A stretch of DNA of 50,856 bases, taken from Candidatus Thorarchaeota archaeon. GTDB lineage: Archaea > Asgardarchaeota > Thorarchaeia > Thorarchaeales > Thorarchaeaceae. Below are positions 4,468 to 31,410 of the stretch, one piece after another (the stretch's first letter is position 1; each line of letters opens with the position of its first letter). The notes below the pieces were generated by a model, which made no database searches, was not told the DNA's origin, and saw only the letters and a list, made by a program, of their open reading frames with translations. The stretch is from positions 1-50,856 of the forward strand of contig SDNO01000001.1 in the NCBI GenBank assembly GCA_004524435.1. The letters are read 5' to 3'. Both the position numbers and the translations under genes were made by a program.

Positions 4468-5286
4468 CTACTCTTTTTCCGTAGGTATCTTGAACTTGTT
4501 GGCGACAAACCGTGCGAAGTCCGTATTGCTGATTATCCCCACGATGGCATTTCCCTCTTCCACTACCGGAAGCGTGTTCAAGCCGTTGTCAAGCATAATT
4601 GTAGCTGCTTCTGCAATGGAGTCATCTGGTCCAACCATAGGCGGCTGCTGAGCCATAGCGTCTACTACCCTGAGAAGTCTCACCTGATTTGCGCGATACT
4701 TGTCAGGTACCTCGACACTGAAGCGAGCCATAGCTTCCGCCACCATCTTCTCTGTGAGAAGGCCAAGGACCCGCTTTCCGTCTGTCACAGGGAGCCCCGA
4801 ATATCCGGCTGTCAGCATATCGCTTCTAGCCTTGATGAGACGCTCAACTGGATTCACAAGTAAGAGGTCTTCGGAAGTCATAAGGTCCTTTACCTTCACA
4901 TCAGTGAATTTCTTCATGAGCTCCGTGAGATCCGTTTTTGTGATCACTCCAACGAGCTCTCCCTCATCATCAATGACTGGACATCCACTCATCCCCCTCT
5001 CAATCATGAGGTTGGCAACAACCGTGATGTCATGATTCGGCCTGACACTGATAACAGTGTCAGACATAGCACTCGATACATGCAGTCTTCCAATGGAGAC
5101 TGCGACTACTTTACTTACTCCCAGCCTATCTGCAATATCGGCATAGGTAATGATTCCCGTGACTTCCTTATCATCGATTACAACCAGTCTGCCTACGCCT
5201 TTTTTGTCCAGCAGATCCAGAGCATAGGATAGCCTCTGGTCTTTATCAATTGTCACTGGTTCGCTCATTATCTGGCTAACTTCCAA
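4468..5286 (-). CDS. CBS-domain protein (four tandem CBS repeats)
   Basis: The CBS pattern repeats (e.g. GCPVIDDEGELVGVITKTDL, GLPVTDGKRVLGLLTEKMV, TLPVVEEGNAIVGIISNTDF). Confidence 0.85.
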   Translation of the reverse strand: MEVSQIMSEPVTIDKDQRLSYALDLLDKKGVGRLVVIDDKEVTGIITYADIADRLGVSKVVAVSIGRLHVSSAMSDTVISVRPNHDITVVANLMIERGMSGCPVIDDEGELVGVITKTDLTELMKKFTDVKVKDLMTSEDLLLVNPVERLIKARSDMLTAGYSGLPVTDGKRVLGLLTEKMVAEAMARFSVEVPDKYRANQVRLLRVVDAMAQQPPMVGPDDSIAEAATIMLDNGLNTLPVVEEGNAIVGIISNTDFARFVANKFKIPTEKE

Positions 5287-5345
5287 CTACTGCGCCTCCC
5301 AAACGGTATTTCCAACTAAGGGTTATCTGAATCAAAATTTCTCAA

Positions 5346-5909
5346 CTAACTGCGACAGCTCTCACACAGGTAACGTCCATCTTGCATTGCAAGATCGGTT
5401 GAGTATTCTCCGCAACTATCACAGATTCCGCCGTACGCGACTAGTTCATCCTCGTCAACTTCTCGTCGTGCAGGCTCTCCTCGCACTCTCAATGACTCGA
5501 CAAGGATGTCAATCAGCTCGGGTGACCACTGCAAGATGTCGCGAGAGGTCAAGATACCGGCCAGAGTGTGATTCTTCAGGACTATGAGTCTCCTGATTCC
5601 GCTTTTTGCCATCACGCGCATAGCCTCAGTCAGACCCGTTGCCGGCGTGACATGAATCAGAGGTGCCGACATTATTTCCCGTGCAGCCGTTGTCTGTGGG
5701 TCTATCTCCCTCGCAATTACTCTTCTAATAAGATCCGTTTCACTGATTATTCCCAAGGGTCGCTCTCCTTCAGCAATCACTATGGAACCGATGTCCATGT
5801 CGGTCATTGTTTTTGCTACTTCAAAGACAGTGGCAGTAGGTGCCATGGTAACAACGTCATGAGTCATGATGTCACGCACCGACATGCTGTGCTGGGCTGG
5901 ATTCGTCAT
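5346..5909 (-). CDS. CBS-pair protein with a C-terminal zinc ribbon
   Basis: Two CBS repeats (IVIAEGERPLGIISETDL; RLIVLKNHTLAGILTSRDI) followed by CDSCGEY-x15-CESC. Confidence 0.85.
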   Translation of the reverse strand: MTNPAQHSMSVRDIMTHDVVTMAPTATVFEVAKTMTDMDIGSIVIAEGERPLGIISETDLIRRVIAREIDPQTTAAREIMSAPLIHVTPATGLTEAMRVMAKSGIRRLIVLKNHTLAGILTSRDILQWSPELIDILVESLRVRGEPARREVDEDELVAYGGICDSCGEYSTDLAMQDGRYLCESCRS

Positions 5910-6037
5910 TTTATCGACCTCAAGCTACTCAGGAACTTGGCAGTTGGTACCCATCACGTCGATGGACACCACGGAAGAGTGCGAATTTGTTCGATTAAAA
6001 AGCTTATCTAATCGTCCTGTTCCTCGCTTCGACTCCT

Positions 6038-8044
6038 TCAGCGCTTCAGTACCCCTTCACCAGGAGGAAGTACTCTCATCATCTCTTCTTCAGGCATGCG
6101 GGAGACAAGATGTGTTTGATTGTCAGGAACCAATAGCTCAAGGGCATTCATGATATCCTTGACAAGCTGACCCTTCTTGTCTCCTCCAGGAACTACCTTC
6201 ACATGATATTGTGTATTCGCCTCTACAGCTGTTGGTGGTCCAGAGAATGGAATGGCATGCTCTTCCTCGAGTAAGACTCCTACCCGAAGCTCCACAGGCA
6301 CATTCTTGAGAAAGTTCTTGTTTCCATAGATCATGACCGCCCCCGACGGAAGGTACTCTCCCGAGGGCGGTGTAAAGCTCACCTGTTCCGGGTTGACCCA
6401 GTAGGCGTCTCCTGCTGTCAACCCATCTTGCCATGCTCGTGAAAAAGTGATTGCGAATTGGGCGGCTTCCCACAGGGTCTGTTCTCCTGGAGGTTTGTCG
6501 GGCACCTTTATCACGGTGTACGGAGCCCCATGTACCGCCGCATGCAGGAAGACATCATTCGGTCCCATGTGTTTCTTTGCGATTGCTTCATTGGTTCGTG
6601 CGTCTCTTCCACCTATGACAAGATAGTCCTCTGACGAAATGAACCAACGATACTTCTCATACCAGCGTTTCTTTCTAACCTTGATCGGAACAGGCTCTTC
6701 GGTTTCTTCAATGTCCGAGAGATCCAAGTCTGAAAGCTTCTCTCGCGTCTTGGCAATCTGCTTCTTGGCCCCCTCCACCCTATGTTCGGCTTTCTTTGCG
6801 CTCTCATATGCTCGCGATGCATTCTCTTGTGGAGTCTTTCGGATATCTAGTACAATCTCTTGATCTTGCAACTCCACTACGACCTCTCCCTGAGACGGGA
6901 CTATTTTCGCAATTCTCTGCGCCACTTCATTTCCTTGCTTTTTGCCCTCGCCTATGGTACGCTCAATCTCCTCCCAAGAGACTCCCTCTGACCTCGCCTC
7001 TCTAATAGTCTCGAGGATATCTGTCACAATCTGGAAATGCATGTATACCAGCTCTCCTGCGTTGCGCTGTTCCTCTGCCTTCTGAAGAAGGACATCAACA
7101 TTCTCTTGTTGTTTCTCTATGATTGTCTTGAGCCGTCTTCGTTCTTCCTGCAAAGCTTCAATATCAGGTGTTTCTTGGTCCATCTCTTCTTCAGTGACAC
7201 CAAAATATTCGTCTAGCGTTTGGCTGAAACTATCAAAGACGGTCTGAGGGTGCTCGTTGAAGGTCTCGAATCTGAAGGGGACAAACGCTATCGGTTCGGA
7301 CTCATCATCCTCATCATAGATGACTCTTGGTTCATCTACTCCGCCTCTTATCCTACGTCCAAACTCTTCAATTCCTTGCTTCAGTGCCTCCAGTGCCCCC
7401 TCCTCGATATCCCTCATCTTAGAGCCGGCCTCTACGTCTGCTAGCGCACATATCTCTTCACAGCTCAGAGAATCCAGATTCAGTTTTCTTGTCAGTGTCC
7501 TTATGACGCTCGAATCAGAGTCCGTGAGCACATCCTCAATTGCTGCATCATCCAGTTTGAACACATTGCTGCCTCTCTGCGGAGGGAATTCATAGACCTC
7601 CTTCGGAACAAGATCCCTATCTCGCATCTTCCTGTATTGAAGAGCAATGAATATCACGTCATCATTGTCGAGAAGAAGCAGATTCCCTCTACCAAATAGC
7701 TCTGCCACCAACTTGTGAGATTCCTCGTCGTCACCCACCTCAATAGTGACAATTCTGTCCAGCTCATGCTGTTCTATAGCTATAATCCGTCTGTCACGTA
7801 GATACTTCCTGAGCACACTCACGAACTTACGAGGCATCTTGGGTGCGACACGCCGATAGTTGGTAAGGTGAATCCTATGTCCTGGTTCAATGAGCAGCTG
7901 AACCGTCCCCTCGCCAGGCTGATATACCTTGAGAACAAACACGTCCCCGTATTGGTACACATTCTTGATGAATGCACCCTGAGCTGCTTCACGCATCTCA
8001 TCCATCATGATTCTGATATCTACGTTGCTCATTGCGTCCTTCAT
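6038..8044 (-). CDS. NFACT-family protein (archaeal Rqc2/NEMF/FbpA homologue, ribosome quality control)
   Basis: NFACT-N-like N-terminus, a central coiled coil, and an NFACT-R/DUF814-like segment (RWFISSEDYLVIGGRDARTNE...DVFLHAAVHGAPYTVIK). 668 aa. Confidence 0.9.
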   Translation of the reverse strand: MKDAMSNVDIRIMMDEMREAAQGAFIKNVYQYGDVFVLKVYQPGEGTVQLLIEPGHRIHLTNYRRVAPKMPRKFVSVLRKYLRDRRIIAIEQHELDRIVTIEVGDDEESHKLVAELFGRGNLLLLDNDDVIFIALQYRKMRDRDLVPKEVYEFPPQRGSNVFKLDDAAIEDVLTDSDSSVIRTLTRKLNLDSLSCEEICALADVEAGSKMRDIEEGALEALKQGIEEFGRRIRGGVDEPRVIYDEDDESEPIAFVPFRFETFNEHPQTVFDSFSQTLDEYFGVTEEEMDQETPDIEALQEERRRLKTIIEKQQENVDVLLQKAEEQRNAGELVYMHFQIVTDILETIREARSEGVSWEEIERTIGEGKKQGNEVAQRIAKIVPSQGEVVVELQDQEIVLDIRKTPQENASRAYESAKKAEHRVEGAKKQIAKTREKLSDLDLSDIEETEEPVPIKVRKKRWYEKYRWFISSEDYLVIGGRDARTNEAIAKKHMGPNDVFLHAAVHGAPYTVIKVPDKPPGEQTLWEAAQFAITFSRAWQDGLTAGDAYWVNPEQVSFTPPSGEYLPSGAVMIYGNKNFLKNVPVELRVGVLLEEEHAIPFSGPPTAVEANTQYHVKVVPGGDKKGQLVKDIMNALELLVPDNQTHLVSRMPEEEMMRVLPPGEGVLKR

Positions 8045-24882: not shown

Positions 24883-25251
24883 CTAATCGGCTATCATGTT
24901 GACCAGCGCGCGTTTTGTGGCCATCCTGATCAAACCCATAGACTCTCGCGCATTCTTTCCAGCTATTGCTGCGAGCACCAGCTTGACGTCACCGAGGATA
25001 ATGATGAGTCCTTTGTCAGCCGTTATTGTGATTTCATTCAGGCCACCCTTCTCCAGTCCTGTGACCATCTGTGCCGAATTCGAGGCTATCTTGACAGCTA
25101 GATTTGCAACTTCGGAGTGCTTGATATCGCCAGTAATCGTGTGACCAAAAACAACATTCCCCTCGGCATCGCATACGATCATGCCCTGGATGTCAGCATT
25201 TGCAGCCATTGTGTCAGCAACTATGGTCTTAATCTTTGATTCATCAACCAT
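24883..25251 (-). CDS. Roadblock/LC7 (MglB-like) domain protein
   Basis: 122 aa with the typical pattern ...IQGMIVCDAEGNVVFGH...LNEITITADKGLIIILGD... Transcribed divergently from the Sec23/24-like gene. Confidence 0.85.
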   Translation of the reverse strand: MVDESKIKTIVADTMAANADIQGMIVCDAEGNVVFGHTITGDIKHSEVANLAVKIASNSAQMVTGLEKGGLNEITITADKGLIIILGDVKLVLAAIAGKNARESMGLIRMATKRALVNMIAD

Positions 25252-25460: not shown

Positions 25461-27098
25461 ATGCCTATGCTACGCACTACCTCGGACACCTTTCCGGCTG
25501 AAACGAAGATGATGAGTGATATCCCGTACGTACTCCGCGTGGAGTTTGGAGCACTCGAGAAAGAGGAGAAGAAGATTATCGGGAAGCCTATAGCATGTCA
25601 CAAGTGCAACGGATTCCTACTCAGTATTGATCAGATAGTTGAAGATGATAAGGTTGGCAAACACTTCATCTGCCCCTTCTGTGGAACACTCAACGTTATC
25701 GAGGGCGAGATTGTCACTGCAGGCGACGACACTGATTTCGTCATCGAACCCCCTAAGGATACTACGGAATCAGATACAGAATCCCTGGAGCAAATGGGCG
25801 GTACTCTCCTTGCCCTCATTGATGTGTCAGGGTCTATGGCTGGTGCCAATCTTGCTGCCGTGAAGAGAAGCCTGAGGACATCAGTTGAGAGTCTTGCTGC
25901 AAACGCGCCAAATACCCTGTTTGGTCTGATTGAATTTGAGAGCAGTGTCTTATTCAGAGATCTTCAGTCTGGCAATGAGATAATCCTTCCTCGGAATGCC
26001 TATGCCAGTTATGAGGCCATACAGAAACAAACTCAGCAACTCATGGACCACATCAAATTCCTGAGTGTTGGTGAGAATGCGGATAGAATCAAGAAACATC
26101 TCAGTGCGTTATGTGACAAAGGCGGAACAGCTCTTGGCCCGGCAGTTGCAATGGGCTATGCAATTGCCAAACACAGAGATATCGGGCGTGTTGTATTACT
26201 GACCGACGGTCTAGCGAATGAGGGTATCGGCGCACTGGAAGGCTTTCAGGTAACCCCAGCAACTAGTTTCTACGAAGAGATGGGTGTCGAATTCATGAAA
26301 AATGGCACTGCGGTGGATGTTGTAGGCATTGCCTCTGGAGCAGGAATGGAACTCAAAACGTTAGGTCTTCTTCCCGAGGCCACGGGTGGCCAAATGTACT
26401 ATGTGACACCCAACGAGCTTGACCAGAGCATAGCAGAGTTGGCAGGCAGTTCACTCCTTGGTCGGGATGTAGAAGTACGCTTGATCACTCCTCCGGGCAT
26501 CAAAGTAAAAGACGCATCAGGGGTTTCACGAGGGGTCATTGATGATCTGAAGGCCAAGGCTGAGAGTAAGATCGGAGTGGTGGGCGAGAATCATGAGCTC
26601 TATTTCGAGATTGAATCCGAGAGTCGAGTCGAGTCAGATACTGTGCCCATCCAGGTCCAGGTTACCTACACGGATTCTGAGGGTGCTCGAAGGGTCAGAG
26701 CAGTCACGACCAAGCTCAAAGTCGCGAAGGATGATGAGGAGATAATGAAGACACTTGATCCTACTCTTGGTGCCACATTCGTCACGCAGAAGGCCGGAGA
26801 GGAGTCCTTCAGAGGGGATCGAGAGGAGGGTAAGAAACGCATCTCCTCCTTCCGGGCAGCGATGAAGAAACAGGCAGAATCCGCTCCGGAGAACGTTCAG
26901 AACAGAATAGACGAAATCGACGATGTTCTGGCGGGTGAAGAGGAGGAGATGGAGCGTCTGGACAATATGATGAAAGCCGCACCTGCATCTGCTCCATCTG
27001 CGGCAGCAGATGAGGCGTATACATCGGGTCTCCAACAGATGCGCCGCAGCTCGAAGCAGATGTTTAGGAAGAAGAAGGATGAGGATGACGAAGAATAG
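25461..27098 (+). CDS. Sec23/Sec24-like protein: Zn finger, vWA (trunk) domain, beta-sandwich and a charged helical tail
   Basis: Zn finger CHKC-x21-CPFC (aa 46-74). vWA with MIDAS-like LALIDVSGSMAG and LLTDGLANEG. LGLLPEATGGQMYYV. Beta-sandwich motif VPIQVQVTYTDSEGARRVRAVTTKLKV. TATATAA about 50 nt upstream. Confidence 0.8.
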   Translation: MPMLRTTSDTFPAETKMMSDIPYVLRVEFGALEKEEKKIIGKPIACHKCNGFLLSIDQIVEDDKVGKHFICPFCGTLNVIEGEIVTAGDDTDFVIEPPKDTTESDTESLEQMGGTLLALIDVSGSMAGANLAAVKRSLRTSVESLAANAPNTLFGLIEFESSVLFRDLQSGNEIILPRNAYASYEAIQKQTQQLMDHIKFLSVGENADRIKKHLSALCDKGGTALGPAVAMGYAIAKHRDIGRVVLLTDGLANEGIGALEGFQVTPATSFYEEMGVEFMKNGTAVDVVGIASGAGMELKTLGLLPEATGGQMYYVTPNELDQSIAELAGSSLLGRDVEVRLITPPGIKVKDASGVSRGVIDDLKAKAESKIGVVGENHELYFEIESESRVESDTVPIQVQVTYTDSEGARRVRAVTTKLKVAKDDEEIMKTLDPTLGATFVTQKAGEESFRGDREEGKKRISSFRAAMKKQAESAPENVQNRIDEIDDVLAGEEEEMERLDNMMKAAPASAPSAAADEAYTSGLQQMRRSSKQMFRKKKDEDDEE

Positions 27099-27255: not shown

Positions 27256-27561
27256 GTGGGGATTTCACGGTTGATTAGCCAGGAGAGACTTGAAGCGATT
27301 CTTGCCGACCTTACAGCCCAAGAGGGCGTTCGAGGAGTTGTAGTCACAAACATGGAAGGGCTGCCACTTAGCAGCGATCTTCCCCCTGAGACCACTGAAA
27401 CCGTCGCTGCAATACTGACCTCACTAGTGGGCAAGGCTCTTGACGCAGTTCGAGAGCTTCAAGAGGGGTCTTTATCATTTCTGACTCTTGATACAACCAA
27501 GGGACAGATAAACATCGCACCGGATGTTAAAGAGGACCTCATATTAGTAGTCCTCAAATAG
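27256..27561 (+). CDS. Roadblock/LC7 domain protein
   Basis: LEAILADLTAQEGVRGVVVTNMEGLPLSS...LSFLTLDTTKGQINIAP. The start is uncertain (GTG at 27256 or TTG at 27274). Confidence 0.8.
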   Translation: MGISRLISQERLEAILADLTAQEGVRGVVVTNMEGLPLSSDLPPETTETVAAILTSLVGKALDAVRELQEGSLSFLTLDTTKGQINIAPDVKEDLILVVLK

Positions 27562-27586
27562 GAATGTGTCTAAGAGGTACATCACC

Positions 27587-28054
27587 ATGAGCGATCCGAA
27601 AGCCTTTGACAAGATACTCACAGATATTATTCGGCAGGACAAGGGAATCAAGAAAGTCATACTTGTTGATAAGACTGGCCTGACAATAGCCAATGTGAGC
27701 AAATTGAGTTACTACCCTGTCGATGTAGACAGTATCGGTGCAATTGCAAGTGCCGTGTTCTGCGCAAGTGAAGAACAGGGTAAGAACTTGCAGATTGGAG
27801 AGCTCGAGATTGTGACCTCGGAGTTCTCGGAGGGCAAGATATTTGCATCAGCCTGTGGCAAGGGAGTTCTCTGTGTGGTGTCCGAGGCAGAGGTGAACAT
27901 CGGTCTGATTCGTCTCGTGATGAAGAAACAGGGTATGCAATTGGCCGATGAGTTGGATAAGTTCCTAGCGGTGGAACCAATGGCACCCAGCAAAGACCGC
28001 GAACTTGACGAGGAAGATCTCAAATCCGCCTTGGCTGAACTGGAGAGAGTCTAG
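27587..28054 (+). CDS. Roadblock/LC7 domain protein with an acidic C-terminal extension
   Basis: GIKKVILVDKTGLTIANVS...LEIVTSEFSEGKIFASACGKGVLCVV. The ATG at 27587 lies 7 nt after GAGGT. Confidence 0.82.
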   Translation: MSDPKAFDKILTDIIRQDKGIKKVILVDKTGLTIANVSKLSYYPVDVDSIGAIASAVFCASEEQGKNLQIGELEIVTSEFSEGKIFASACGKGVLCVVSEAEVNIGLIRLVMKKQGMQLADELDKFLAVEPMAPSKDRELDEEDLKSALAELERV

Positions 28055-28296
28055 TTACCTAGAGAGTAGGTCTGTGCATCAGTTTCATCTGACTAAGCCT
28101 GGATTCCAAATTGTCATGGACTGTCTTATCCACATTAGGAATTTCACGGTGGGTCAGACGACGGACAAAGGCTTTTATGAGACTAAACTTTTATCACCTT
28201 CAACCTCCCGAGGCTAGGCCGGAGGCCCGAGGGATATTCTGCTCTCTGTGGGTCTCATCAAACCATGGGCAAGCAGTGAATCTATGAGGTGATCCA

Positions 28297-28860
28297 GTGA
28301 GAAAGGACGACAAGGGGCGAATACATCTAAAGCTGGTATTCTATGGTCCAAGCCTAGGTGGGAAGACAACTGCCCTTCGCTGGCTTTATGGCAAAGTTGA
28401 GGGTCTACAGAAAGGGGAGTTCACTGCAATTGAAGATGAGACAAACCGAACTCTGTTTTTCGACTATGTACCAATGAGTGCCGGAGGAAGAGTTCTGTTT
28501 GATGTCTTCACCGTCGCCGGGCAAAAGCGGCATAGACATCAGCGAAAGGTCGTATTGCAGGGCACCGACGGTATTCTGTTTGTCGCAGATTCTTCACCTG
28601 ACCAACGTGATGAGAATACGGAGAGCTTCGAAGAGCTAAAACTGTTTCTTGGAGATGCTCTGGGCAGAGAGATCCCCATTGTCGTAATGCTGAACAAACG
28701 CGATCTGCCCAATCGAATGTCCCGTGATGAAATGCTTGACCTCCTTGGTCTGGGCGGCAATGTACCCATCTATGAAACCATTGCTATTCAAGGCGTAGGA
28801 GTTAAGAGAGCATTTCAGGCTATAGCAAGAGAGGTAATCCTCAAAAGGATGTACAAGTAG
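28297..28860 (+). CDS. MglA-family small Ras-like GTPase
   Basis: G1 GPSLGGKT, switch I TNRTLFFDYVPMS, MglA-type G3 FTVAGQ (Thr replaces the usual Asp), GTDGILFVADS, G4 NKRDLPN. The GTG start lies 1 nt after a 10-nt Shine-Dalgarno GAGGTGATCC. Confidence 0.92.
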   Translation: MRKDDKGRIHLKLVFYGPSLGGKTTALRWLYGKVEGLQKGEFTAIEDETNRTLFFDYVPMSAGGRVLFDVFTVAGQKRHRHQRKVVLQGTDGILFVADSSPDQRDENTESFEELKLFLGDALGREIPIVVMLNKRDLPNRMSRDEMLDLLGLGGNVPIYETIAIQGVGVKRAFQAIAREVILKRMYK

Positions 28861-28876: not shown

Positions 28877-29248
28877 ATGAGCGAATCCCGTGGAGAAACC
28901 CTTGAAGGTGTTCTAAACGAGCTACAGGGCAGTATCCCTGAGATTGAGGCTTGTGCCATTGTCAGTGTAGAGGGATTACCAATCGTTTCGGCTCTTCCAG
29001 CTGATGTGGATGAGGCAAAACTGGCCGCAATTACGGCTGCAATGTTGACCCTCGGCGAGAAGGCAGCCGTTGAACTCGGAAAAGGTGAACTTGAGCAGGT
29101 CAATGTGAAAGGCAAAGAGGGGTGGGTTCTTGTTGTACAGGCCGGCATGAATGCCTGCCTCACGGTCTCAACGACCGGCACGGCGAAACTCGGTCTCGTA
29201 TTTCTTGATATGAAGCGGGCAGCCGAGAAAGTCGCTACGATGATTTAG
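28877..29248 (+). CDS. Roadblock/LC7 (MglB-like) domain protein
   Basis: LNELQGSIPEIEACAIVSVEGLPIVSA...LEQVNVKGKEGWVLVVQAG. It starts 16 nt after the GTPase stop, with an AGGTGA Shine-Dalgarno. Confidence 0.87.
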   Translation: MSESRGETLEGVLNELQGSIPEIEACAIVSVEGLPIVSALPADVDEAKLAAITAAMLTLGEKAAVELGKGELEQVNVKGKEGWVLVVQAGMNACLTVSTTGTAKLGLVFLDMKRAAEKVATMI

Positions 29249-30174: not shown

Positions 30175-31410
30175 ATGATGCTTCCCGTACTCCAAGGAGA
30201 ACATGTGGAATTGACGCGAAACCCACTTGAAACATACGAAGGGCTGCTCAGCAGTAATCTAACGGATGAGATTCAATCGTACATCGTGAAAGTCATCAGT
30301 AGATACTCTGATGCCGATTTTGCTGATGAAGAGTTCTCCACCCACTTAGGTCGTTTCGTTGAGATTGTATGTCGCCTCATCTCACATCTGAATCGCCGAA
30401 AAGAGCCCACTCTCACCGATCTTATGCAGGCAATGGATGTTCTGGACCACTTCGCCTCCACTACCCGTTGGTGGAACATGGCTCGTTCCTCGCCTGGGAT
30501 AATCCTGCGGCCGGCAACCCGGGACCCCCGTGAATTCATACGATCTATTCCCTCTGTACGACTAGGCAGTGAAACCATCAGCAGGATAAAGGGGGCATCC
30601 GATCGGCTGTCATCTTTTCTGGATGAACACGAAATCGCCAGCTCAAGCACTCGGGAGCATCTACAAAGATGCATGATGTCCACATGGACCCTTCTCAGCG
30701 CATTCTGTTGCAAGAGTCAAGGACGTAACGTATCCTCTGAATCAGATTTCGAGACCGCATACGACATTCTCAGAATCCTCCTTTTCCATACTCCTAGTGT
30801 AGATTTTGCTGCACTGAGTGCAATCAGGATTATAGCTACCAGTTCCCGCCTTCCACAGATTGCTGATGTCAATTTTTCGCCAGGTTTCGAGAAGAAACTT
30901 GAGTCTTCCACAGCGGCAAGACTGGAAACTACGCATGGCGAATACCTCGGAGATGCAGGCGATACAGTCCCGAGAGCATCTCGTGCTATTCTCACAAACT
31001 CAATCAGGCTGCTTGCGCAGATTGAAGCTGCAAACCTTGGCATTGACAGAATCGAAGAGAGTGACTACGACACGGTGACCATGGGCGCCCTCAGTCTCTT
31101 GGAGCGGGTGCGTATCGACCCAGAGGTCTTCCTCGATGAGAATGCTGTGGTTGGCCTATTCAGAAGACTCAGGCCAGCAGAAGAGGGAATCGGTGAAGGA
31201 CTAGCACTTCTGACACGAAAGCTTGAGAGCCTCATTGTTGACTCTACAGGCAATCGCAATTTCTTGCTTCAACATGCAAGGGTGGTCCCTCGGATGGTAG
31301 CCCTTCTCCTGTTAGTCTCGAGCGGTACCAAGTCCCCTGAGGATGACGGGTTAAGAGACATCGACTTGAAGAGAGGTCTGATTCTGCTGGAGAAGCTAAT
31401 CAGTGACTAG
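30175..31410 (+). CDS. Hypothetical all-helical protein built from four AAA+-lid-like repeats
   Basis: 411-aa ORF with a roughly 100-aa internal periodicity. See finding. Confidence 0.7.
   Translation: MMLPVLQGEHVELTRNPLETYEGLLSSNLTDEIQSYIVKVISRYSDADFADEEFSTHLGRFVEIVCRLISHLNRRKEPTLTDLMQAMDVLDHFASTTRWWNMARSSPGIILRPATRDPREFIRSIPSVRLGSETISRIKGASDRLSSFLDEHEIASSSTREHLQRCMMSTWTLLSAFCCKSQGRNVSSESDFETAYDILRILLFHTPSVDFAALSAIRIIATSSRLPQIADVNFSPGFEKKLESSTAARLETTHGEYLGDAGDTVPRASRAILTNSIRLLAQIEAANLGIDRIEESDYDTVTMGALSLLERVRIDPEVFLDENAVVGLFRRLRPAEEGIGEGLALLTRKLESLIVDSTGNRNFLLQHARVVPRMVALLLLVSSGTKSPEDDGLRDIDLKRGLILLEKLISD

Follow-up and report, generated by a model that had tools for sequence, protein, structure and literature searches.

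Introduction

Homologues of the coat protein complex II (COPII) subunits Sec23 and Sec24 in Asgard archaea are one argument that parts of a vesicle-trafficking machinery were already present in the archaeal ancestor of eukaryotes, and a Sec23/24 family has reportedly been known from Thorarchaeota since 2017. In COPII, Sec23 and Sec24 pair as a heterodimer that engages Sar1-GTP and the membrane and brings in Sec13/31; the gelsolin-like domain of Sec23 carries the arginine finger for GTPase-activating protein (GAP) activity toward Sar1, and Sec23/24 uses a basic membrane face; von Willebrand factor A (vWA) domains that bear a metal-ion-dependent adhesion site (MIDAS) in general grip an acidic ligand residue through the metal. 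Here we consider a Sec23/24-like gene, and the 545-amino-acid protein that it encodes, in a 50,856-nucleotide stretch of DNA from Candidatus Thorarchaeota archaeon (GenBank assembly GCA_004524435.1, contig SDNO01000001.1, positions 1 to 50,856), the whole of which is referred to below as the window. An initial annotation, made from the sequence without database searches, had assigned this protein the domain order of Sec23/Sec24 and several of its sequence signatures.

The closest described systems are the Asgard proteins themselves. Thorarchaeota are stated in PMC7997004 to encode Sec23/Sec24 family proteins, on the authority of the 2017 Asgard papers, and COPII is listed among the Asgard homologues reported earlier (PMC10307638). 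A more recent study (Nat Commun 2025; PMC11914678) describes in detail the Asgard Sec23-like proteins, all of which are without a gelsolin domain and for which Foldseek returns Sec23. The window protein has many relatives of this kind: the best 120 of its 298 homologues are 68-85% identical to it, those that are named being Thorarchaeota, and the orthologue from SMTZ1-45 (70% identical) is annotated as a "SEC24 family transport protein." A scan with one genome per species returned 72 loci, nearly all labelled Thorarchaeota. Homologues of the Asgard type bear the names of Thor-, Hod-, Frey- and Sigynarchaeota, and they form a clan with 100/100 bootstrap support in a neighbour-joining (NJ) tree. 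The Sec23/24-like gene is thus a correct rediscovery of a known Thorarchaeota family, a further orthologue rather than a new kind of gene.

A four-domain Sec23/24-like protein

The 545-residue protein belongs to the Sec23/24 superfamily, yet it departs from a canonical COPII subunit in three ways: the gelsolin domain is absent, the MIDAS is intact, and the protein falls in a clan of its own. Four of the five Sec23/24 domains are present in the same order: first a beta-sandwich that is split, then a Cys4 zinc ribbon, the vWA trunk and, as predicted by the model, a helical domain. The gene and its parts are laid out as follows.

25461 to 27098, forward strand: Sec23/24-like gene, gelsolin-less and MIDAS-intact (open reading frame, Pfam, profile against the PDB, AlphaFold2 model, Foldseek)
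25470 to 25544, forward strand: N-terminal strands, amino acids 4-28, including IPYVLRVEF (DSSP strands 4-6, 10-12 and 24-28 in the confident model; invariant in orthologues)
25587 to 25700, forward strand: Cys4 zinc ribbon, amino acids 43-80, with C46, C49, C71, C74 and N78 (zf-Sec23_Sec24 below cut-off; alignment of the cysteines)
25803 to 26447, forward strand: vWA / Sec23-24 trunk, amino acids 115-329 (Sec23_trunk 47.6 bits, VWA_2 33.6 bits)
25821 to 25823, 25827 to 25829, 25833 to 25835, 26127 to 26129 and 26205 to 26207, forward strand: MIDAS codons for D121, S123, S125, T223 and D249, in that order (alignment)
26454 to 26726, forward strand: beta-sandwich, amino acids 332-422, with Q398...Y403...G408-x-x-R411-x-R413 (Sec23_BS 34.8 bits; signature common to Sec24A and Sec23)
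26733 to 27095, forward strand: C-terminal helical domain and acidic tail, amino acids 425-545 (model helices 425-544; isoelectric point of the segment 4.7)

The reading frame opens with ATG, and this start codon is right, because the N-terminus is conserved from residue 1 onward in 31 orthologues. Two antisense open reading frames overlap the 3' end of the gene and were judged mechanical. Every element that the initial annotation had listed is found, in the order and spacing claimed: the strand IPYVLRVEF (amino acids 21-29); the zinc finger C46-x2-C49-x21-C71-x2-C74, ending in FICPFCGTLN; the vWA opening LLALIDVSGSMAG (116-128) and, within the same domain, LLTDGLANEG (246-255); the TGG-type stretch at the end of the trunk, LGLLPEATGGQMYYV (301-315); the beta-barrel signature segment VPIQVQVTYTDSEGARRVRAVTTKLKV (395-421); and the charged helical tail (425-545), which holds 20 lysines and arginines and 29 aspartates and glutamates. 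By analogy with the topology of Sec23/24 and of ArnB, the strands at amino acids 4-28 and 92-96 would complete the split beta-sandwich.

Three Pfam domains had been anticipated, two of which score above their cut-offs, Sec23_trunk (PF04811) with 47.6 bits (cut-off 27) and Sec23_BS (PF08033) with 34.8 bits (cut-off 33.5), whereas the third, zf-Sec23_Sec24, stays below its cut-off of 25 at 18.4 bits (E 0.0023). The cysteines of the ribbon are nonetheless well kept: C71 and C74 occur in 30/30 sequences of an Asgard-type alignment and C46 and C49 in 28/30, the other two having gaps there; Sec23 and Sec24 carry all four, and the profile alignment pairs the ribbon with the finger of Sec24A. The same Pfam scan of the 545-residue protein gives no Gelsolin and no Sec23_helical match, and the predicted structure ends in helices at residue 545, which bears out the claim that a gelsolin-like domain is absent. 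The profile alignment extends some 40 residues into the helical domain of Sec24A, in a region that has no PF04815 match. At the level of single residues, human Sec24A, human Sec23A and yeast Sec23 all three match the window protein at the four cysteines, N78, G310, Q398, Y403, G408, R411 and R413. This agreement in motifs is far beyond chance.

Searches against known structures lead to the same family. With the single sequence, the significant matches in the PDB are all Sec24 chains (E 1.7e-4). A family profile built from 50 sequences (A2) finds human Sec24A at 2.3e-31, yeast Sec24 at 2e-29, Sec24B at 1e-27 and Sec23A/Sec23 at ~1e-14, followed by ArnB at 2e-13 and by generic vWA proteins at 1e-7 or worse; its alignment with Sec24A runs from before the zinc finger via the trunk and beta-sandwich to the start of the helical domain. 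AlphaFold2 supplied with close Thorarchaeota orthologues only (A1, mean column identity 84%) returned an unusable model, with a predicted local distance difference test (pLDDT) of 46.8; once divergent relatives were added (A2), the model reached pLDDT 89.5 and a predicted template modelling score (pTM) of 0.88. When the predicted structure was compared with the PDB by Foldseek, the best 46 matches were all Sec23/Sec24 (E 2.6e-28 to 1.7e-19, template modelling (TM) score 0.62-0.73, 512-704 aligned columns), and the next ranks went to the bacterial vWA protein 4fx5 and the Sulfolobus ArnAB complex, with a TM score of 0.48. Ku, TerY and BatA, the families that the initial annotation had set against Sec23/24, do not appear among the 50 best Foldseek matches listed, and we rejected them as best fold match. 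Three independent lines, Pfam, profile search and fold, thus support the Sec23/24-like interpretation.

That the protein should instead be a generic prokaryotic vWA protein of the BatA, TerY or ChlD type with coincidental Sec23/24-like motifs, as the names of some orthologue records ("VWA domain-containing protein," "YegL," "Mg-chelatase subunit ChlD") and matches to the Pfam VWA and VWA_2 models might suggest, is extremely improbable and is effectively refuted by profile search, Foldseek and family hidden Markov model (HMM) scores, since in the profile search structures of that kind fall behind Sec24 by 7 to 20 orders of magnitude and are covered in the vWA part alone. With the family HMM, ChlD-like proteins from a DNA motif scan reach ~30 bits and match just the vWA core, where family members reach 200-640 bits; and Sec23/24 can be aligned with the window protein at the zinc ribbon, at the beta-sandwich signature and into the helical domain.

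The protein has an isoelectric point of 4.78 and is acidic in every domain (domain values 4.4-5.9), and no hydrophobic segment was seen along its 545 residues (maximum 19-residue Kyte-Doolittle value 1.56). These properties predict a soluble, cytosolic, acidic protein. The Sec23/24-like protein is under strong purifying selection.

An intact metal site that COPII has lost

The residues at the five MIDAS positions were compared across 30 Asgard-type proteins, 85 eukaryotic VWA relatives (see below) and three Sec proteins, the last being yeast Sec23 1-613, matching PDB 1m2o, and fragments of human Sec23A and Sec24A. D121, S123, S125, T223 and D249 are invariant in 30/30 of the Asgard-type sequences and in 82-85 of the 85 eukaryotic relatives. 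The MIDAS is degenerate, by contrast, in all three of the Sec proteins, with S125 replaced by N, E or C, T223 by R or S, and D249 by T, S or G. The zinc ligands together with Q398, Y403, G408, R411 and R413 are common to all three groups. Within those parts of the Asgard Sec23-like literature that were available to us, we found no mention of the intact MIDAS, of the MglA/Roadblock neighbourhood or of the cpRAS-VWA relatives described in the following sections.

Eukaryotic relatives, some with a permuted Ras domain

When 1.84 billion representatives were searched exhaustively with phmmer, 1002 of them matched at E<=1e-3. First in order come ~40 clusters of proteins of 500-570 amino acids, among which are the names Hodarchaeota, Freyarchaeota and Sigynarchaeota and one "Armatimonadetes" metagenome-assembled genome (MAG), and then many longer proteins (580-944 amino acids, 94-132 bits). 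The longer proteins that carry names are eukaryotic. Some are called "Circularly permutated Ras protein 1-like," in the nemerteans Tubulanus and Lineus and the sea urchin Diadema; others are VWFA proteins of Anaeramoeba, Entamoeba, Platysulcus and Chrysoparadoxa, and choanoflagellate transcripts are also found. Pfam assigns to the eukaryotic relatives Ras, zf-Sec23_Sec24, Sec23_trunk and Sec23_BS, and the permuted Ras domain (HRAS 41-163, then 3-48) occurs in 15/111 eukaryotic-type representatives. The window protein itself has no N-terminal circularly permuted Ras domain, beginning with beta-sandwich strands and the zinc finger; cpRAS is confined to the eukaryotic relatives. The cpRAS-VWA family was described by Elias and Novotny (2008; PMC2430557), who already drew attention to its annotation as a Sec23/24 trunk, to a putative zinc finger and to relatives without the GTPase. 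Our literature search found no paper naming both cpRAS and Asgard.

Two of the records retrieved deserve separate mention. One (P0140, locus L081; GCA_016183865.1) is a full-length Asgard-type member of 522 amino acids on a 40.8-kb contig of the MAG labelled Armatimonadetes, which means that a bacterium acquired the gene horizontally or else that the contig was wrongly binned or labelled. The other is a choanoflagellate relative (P0279 / P0193, an Acanthoeca spectabilis transcript and a Logan contig) in which the vWA module is preceded by a complete actin domain (352 bits to Pfam Actin), whether as a real fusion or as an assembly artefact.

By sequence, these cpRAS-VWA or "VWFA" proteins are the closest eukaryotic relatives of the window protein, with 94-132 bits versus 24 bits for Sec24A in the single-sequence search. 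Against the Asgard HMM, the eukaryotic VWA group has a median of 260 bits, Sec24A 90 and Sec23 ~40; against an HMM of the eukaryotic group, Sec24A scores 66 bits and Sec23 38 bits. In an NJ tree of 512 columns, the Sec23/24, the Asgard-type and the eukaryotic VWA proteins separate cleanly into three clans, all with 100/100 bootstrap. Neither are the eukaryotic VWA proteins nested among the Asgard ones in this tree nor the Asgard ones among them, and we rejected both arrangements. As an unrooted, distance-based tree with only three Sec23/24 sequences, it groups the proteins into clans and leaves aside which of them are sisters.

The sequence comparisons raise the tentative possibility, which we would hold at rather less than even, that the Asgard proteins represent an ancestral MIDAS-competent, gelsolin-less form of two eukaryotic families: COPII Sec23/24, which would have gained the gelsolin domain and lost the MIDAS, and cpRAS-VWA/"VWFA," which would have kept the MIDAS and in which a Ras-like GTPase or some other module is often joined to the N-terminus. 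If this is true, the role of the archaeal protein would be better modelled as that of a GTPase-coupled, metal-dependent adaptor than as that of a vesicle coat, and the statement that Asgard archaea encode COPII components would need qualifying.

A second family of Thorarchaeota paralogues is 38% identical to the window protein and has an intact MIDAS motif (DVSGSM), without Roadblock or GTPase neighbours (locus L069, 2183-3763; also L097, L117 and L123). Both paralogues occur in one MAG (Thorarchaeota HM4_FB6; L069 and L071), recalling the Sec23/Sec24 pair. A much longer architecture of the same module is seen on a 3.7-kb metagenomic contig (L116, 65-3472, forward strand), where a 1136-amino-acid stop-to-stop open reading frame matches the HMM of the Asgard family with 203 bits.

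Gene neighbourhood

Around the Sec23/24-like gene lie four genes for Roadblock proteins and one for a small GTPase, as follows.

24883 to 25251, reverse strand: Roadblock/LC7-like gene, divergent (Robl_LC7 E 0.001, below the Pfam cut-off; position conserved in Thorarchaeota loci)
27256 to 27561, forward strand: Roadblock/LC7 gene (Robl_LC7 58.4 bits; synteny)
27566 to 28054, forward strand: Roadblock / MAPKK1_Int (LAMTOR3-like) gene, 4 nucleotides past the preceding gene (Pfam; 87-98% identical across Thorarchaeota loci)
28297 to 28860, forward strand: MglA-type small GTPase gene (MglA in the PDB 133.9 bits, E 4.6e-38)
28877 to 29248, forward strand: Roadblock/LC7 gene, 16 nucleotides past the MglA gene (Robl_LC7 62.6 bits; synteny)

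An Arf/Sar1 identity for the neighbouring GTPase was considered and rejected: Pfam ranks Arf first, but in the PDB Myxococcus MglA reaches 133.9 bits versus 48 for Arf4. Of the Thorarchaeota loci long enough to show it, essentially all have the same gene order. Within that fixed order there is one variable spot, the spacer from the second downstream Roadblock gene to MglA (28055-28296), which measures 242 nucleotides here and contains insertions of up to ~4 kb in other loci (L011, L030, L033, L034, L040, L046 and L050). Between Thorarchaeota species, protein identity of the MglA-type GTPase is 91-99%, and at least 95% in all but two loci, an unusually strong constraint; in the same genomes, SMC is 60-71% and the Sec23/24-like protein 55-80% identical. 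Further downstream, a 411-amino-acid open reading frame (30175-31410, forward strand) has no significant Pfam match (best BIG2_C, E 0.16); its place is kept in nearly all Thorarchaeota loci, but its sequence changes quickly, with 38-53% identity in most of them and 85% in the nearest relative. Elsewhere the window is ordinary archaeal chromosome, with SMC-ScpAB, an A-type ATPase, deoxyhypusine synthase and NFACT.

The wider family was sampled through 28 loci of other members, ~230 kb in all, 9 of them obtained by exact protein look-up and 19 by a degenerate DNA motif scan of metagenomes (at least eight clusters). One of these, the non-Thorarchaeota metagenomic locus L082, has a Rab-like GTPase (5214-5753, reverse strand) divergent from the Sec23/24-like gene (6001-7680, forward strand), with Rab43 and Rab1 as best PDB matches, 122 bits to a Thorarchaeota Rab, and a Roadblock gene 6 kb off; it is the sole such case among the 28. 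The MglA/Roadblock arrangement is accordingly specific to Thorarchaeota and not a property of the family. Because collinearity extends to housekeeping genes, and because the 28 other loci are without the arrangement, the neighbourhood establishes no functional link, and we set it aside as general evidence of function.

Proposed function and its alternatives

Taken as a whole, the evidence is best explained if the protein is a Thorarchaeota orthologue of the described Asgard Sec23/24-like protein and most likely serves as an Mg2+-dependent protein-binding adaptor rather than as a GAP of the COPII type, a reading that we regard as probable. Its zinc ribbon would bind Zn2+. By analogy with other vWA domains of this kind, the MIDAS may bind Mg2+ or Mn2+ and use the metal to grip an acidic side chain on a partner, and the beta-sandwich and helical domain could add docking surfaces and specificity, as do the cargo sites of Sec24 and the ArnB-ArnA contacts. 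The protein would then be an adaptor or scaffold that joins proteins in a metal-dependent way. A Sec23-type GAP role would be precluded, because the arginine finger of the gelsolin domain is missing. Small GTPases are a plausible class of partner, given the cluster of MglA with four Roadblock genes in Thorarchaeota and the fusion to a Ras-like GTPase in eukaryotic relatives; this is the least supported and a speculative step, for which the Ras fusions give a better hint than the neighbourhood, still an indirect one. More speculatively, the conserved acidic C-terminal tail might serve as an intra- or intermolecular MIDAS ligand, and the second Thorarchaeota paralogue might form a Sec23/Sec24-like pair with the window protein.

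Several observations weigh against this reading. Collinearity among Thorarchaeota spans ScpB-ScpA-SMC upstream to UPP synthase and acetyl-CoA synthetase downstream, so the adjacency of the MglA and Roadblock genes may be plain synteny. A search of the 28 loci from other members of the family with GTPase and Roadblock seeds returned one adjacent small GTPase, the Rab-like gene of L082, and no adjoining Roadblock gene. In pull-downs reported in PMC11914678, three Asgard Sec23-like proteins bound an Asgard Arf only weakly and independently of nucleotide. Metal binding by the MIDAS is predicted from conserved residues.

The strongest of the alternatives is a working proto-COPII inner coat, in which MglA would stand in as the Sar1 recruiter, Roadblock/MglB-like proteins would provide the GAP and guanine nucleotide exchange factor (GEF) function of the Sec23 gelsolin domain, and the window protein might pair with its paralogue. 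The four-domain Sec23/24 fold, the MglA and four Roadblock genes in essentially all Thorarchaeota loci, and the existence of the paralogue family, with both members in one MAG, all speak for such a coat. We nevertheless consider it unlikely, since the protein differs from all COPII subunits compared in having no gelsolin domain and in retaining the MIDAS, the neighbourhood is not kept outside the Thorarchaeota syntenic block, and the tests published in PMC11914678 showed no binding to an Asgard Arf that depended on GTP. No Sec13/31-like outer coat turned up in the window, where no search was aimed at Sec13/31. The net acidity of all domains also sits poorly with a basic membrane face, a weak point in that it comes from sequence isoelectric points and not from surface charge.

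An ArnB-type signalling regulator, with a C-terminal domain that a partner would bind once it is phosphorylated, on the model of the ArnA-ArnB motility switch of Sulfolobus, and with an ArnA-type zinc finger fused in cis, is a poor prospect in our judgement, at about one chance in ten. ArnB (8s05) is matched in fold (E 1.8e-14, TM 0.48) and in profile (E 2.2e-13), and the C-terminal tail has conserved Ser/Thr residues (RSSK). The ArnAB paper itself (PMC12852372) attributes the core of ArnB to Sec23/24 as well, where a zinc finger packs against the beta-sandwich and the helical domain. But the fit to Sec23/24 is far better than that to ArnB (TM 0.7 versus 0.48; E 1e-28 versus 1e-14), phosphorylation is pure conjecture, and no FHA, kinase or PP2A match was found among the nearby genes scanned with Pfam, UPP synthase and SMC/ScpAB having been named from sequence only.

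To return to the adaptor reading, the window adds no new kind of gene to the argument on trafficking in the ancestor of eukaryotes. What it does offer are useful details: a complete MIDAS that has been lost in COPII, nearest eukaryotic relatives that are sometimes fused to Ras, and an MglA/Roadblock linkage that fails outside Thorarchaeota. The MIDAS, the kinship with cpRAS-VWA and the restriction of the neighbourhood to Thorarchaeota together counsel caution against reading this gene as evidence of COPII-like budding.

Comparison with known systems

Nearest to the window protein are the Asgard Sec23/24-like proteins as presented in PMC11914678 and PMC7997004, which are of the same family, with four domains and no gelsolin domain; those from Thorarchaeota fall in the same orthologous group, and we see no essential difference.

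The eukaryotic cpRAS-VWA/VWFA proteins (XP_074655604.1; Entamoeba XP_004255617.1) are similar in their zinc finger, trunk, beta-sandwich and intact MIDAS and, in those scanned, in giving no Pfam gelsolin match. They differ in having N-terminal extensions (permuted Ras and, in one choanoflagellate record, actin), an insertion after the DxSxS of the MIDAS, and derived residues at positions 313 and 411, where the Asgard proteins share the state of Sec23/24.

ArnB of Sulfolobus acidocaldarius (8S05; PMC12852372) and the bacterial vWA protein 4FX5 resemble the predicted structure of the window protein in that a beta-sandwich hosts the vWA domain and a helical bundle comes after it. A zinc finger packs against the sandwich and the helical part. 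In ArnAB, however, that finger is on a separate protein, ArnA, whereas in the window protein it is fused, and the match is much weaker (TM 0.48).

With COPII Sec24 and Sec23 (1M2V, 3EGD, 1M2O), finally, the window protein shares the order of domains, the helical one as predicted, a TM score of ~0.7 and the Q...Y...G-x-R-R-x-R-V and TGG motifs, the Asgard HMM lying nearer to Sec24 (90 bits) than to Sec23 (~40 bits). Unlike these proteins, it is without a gelsolin domain and so without the arginine finger of Sec23, and its MIDAS is complete where Sec23/24 has lost the equivalents of S125, T223 and D249. Identity in the Foldseek alignments is 15-17%, the host is a prokaryote, and the protein belongs to a separate clan with 100% NJ bootstrap.

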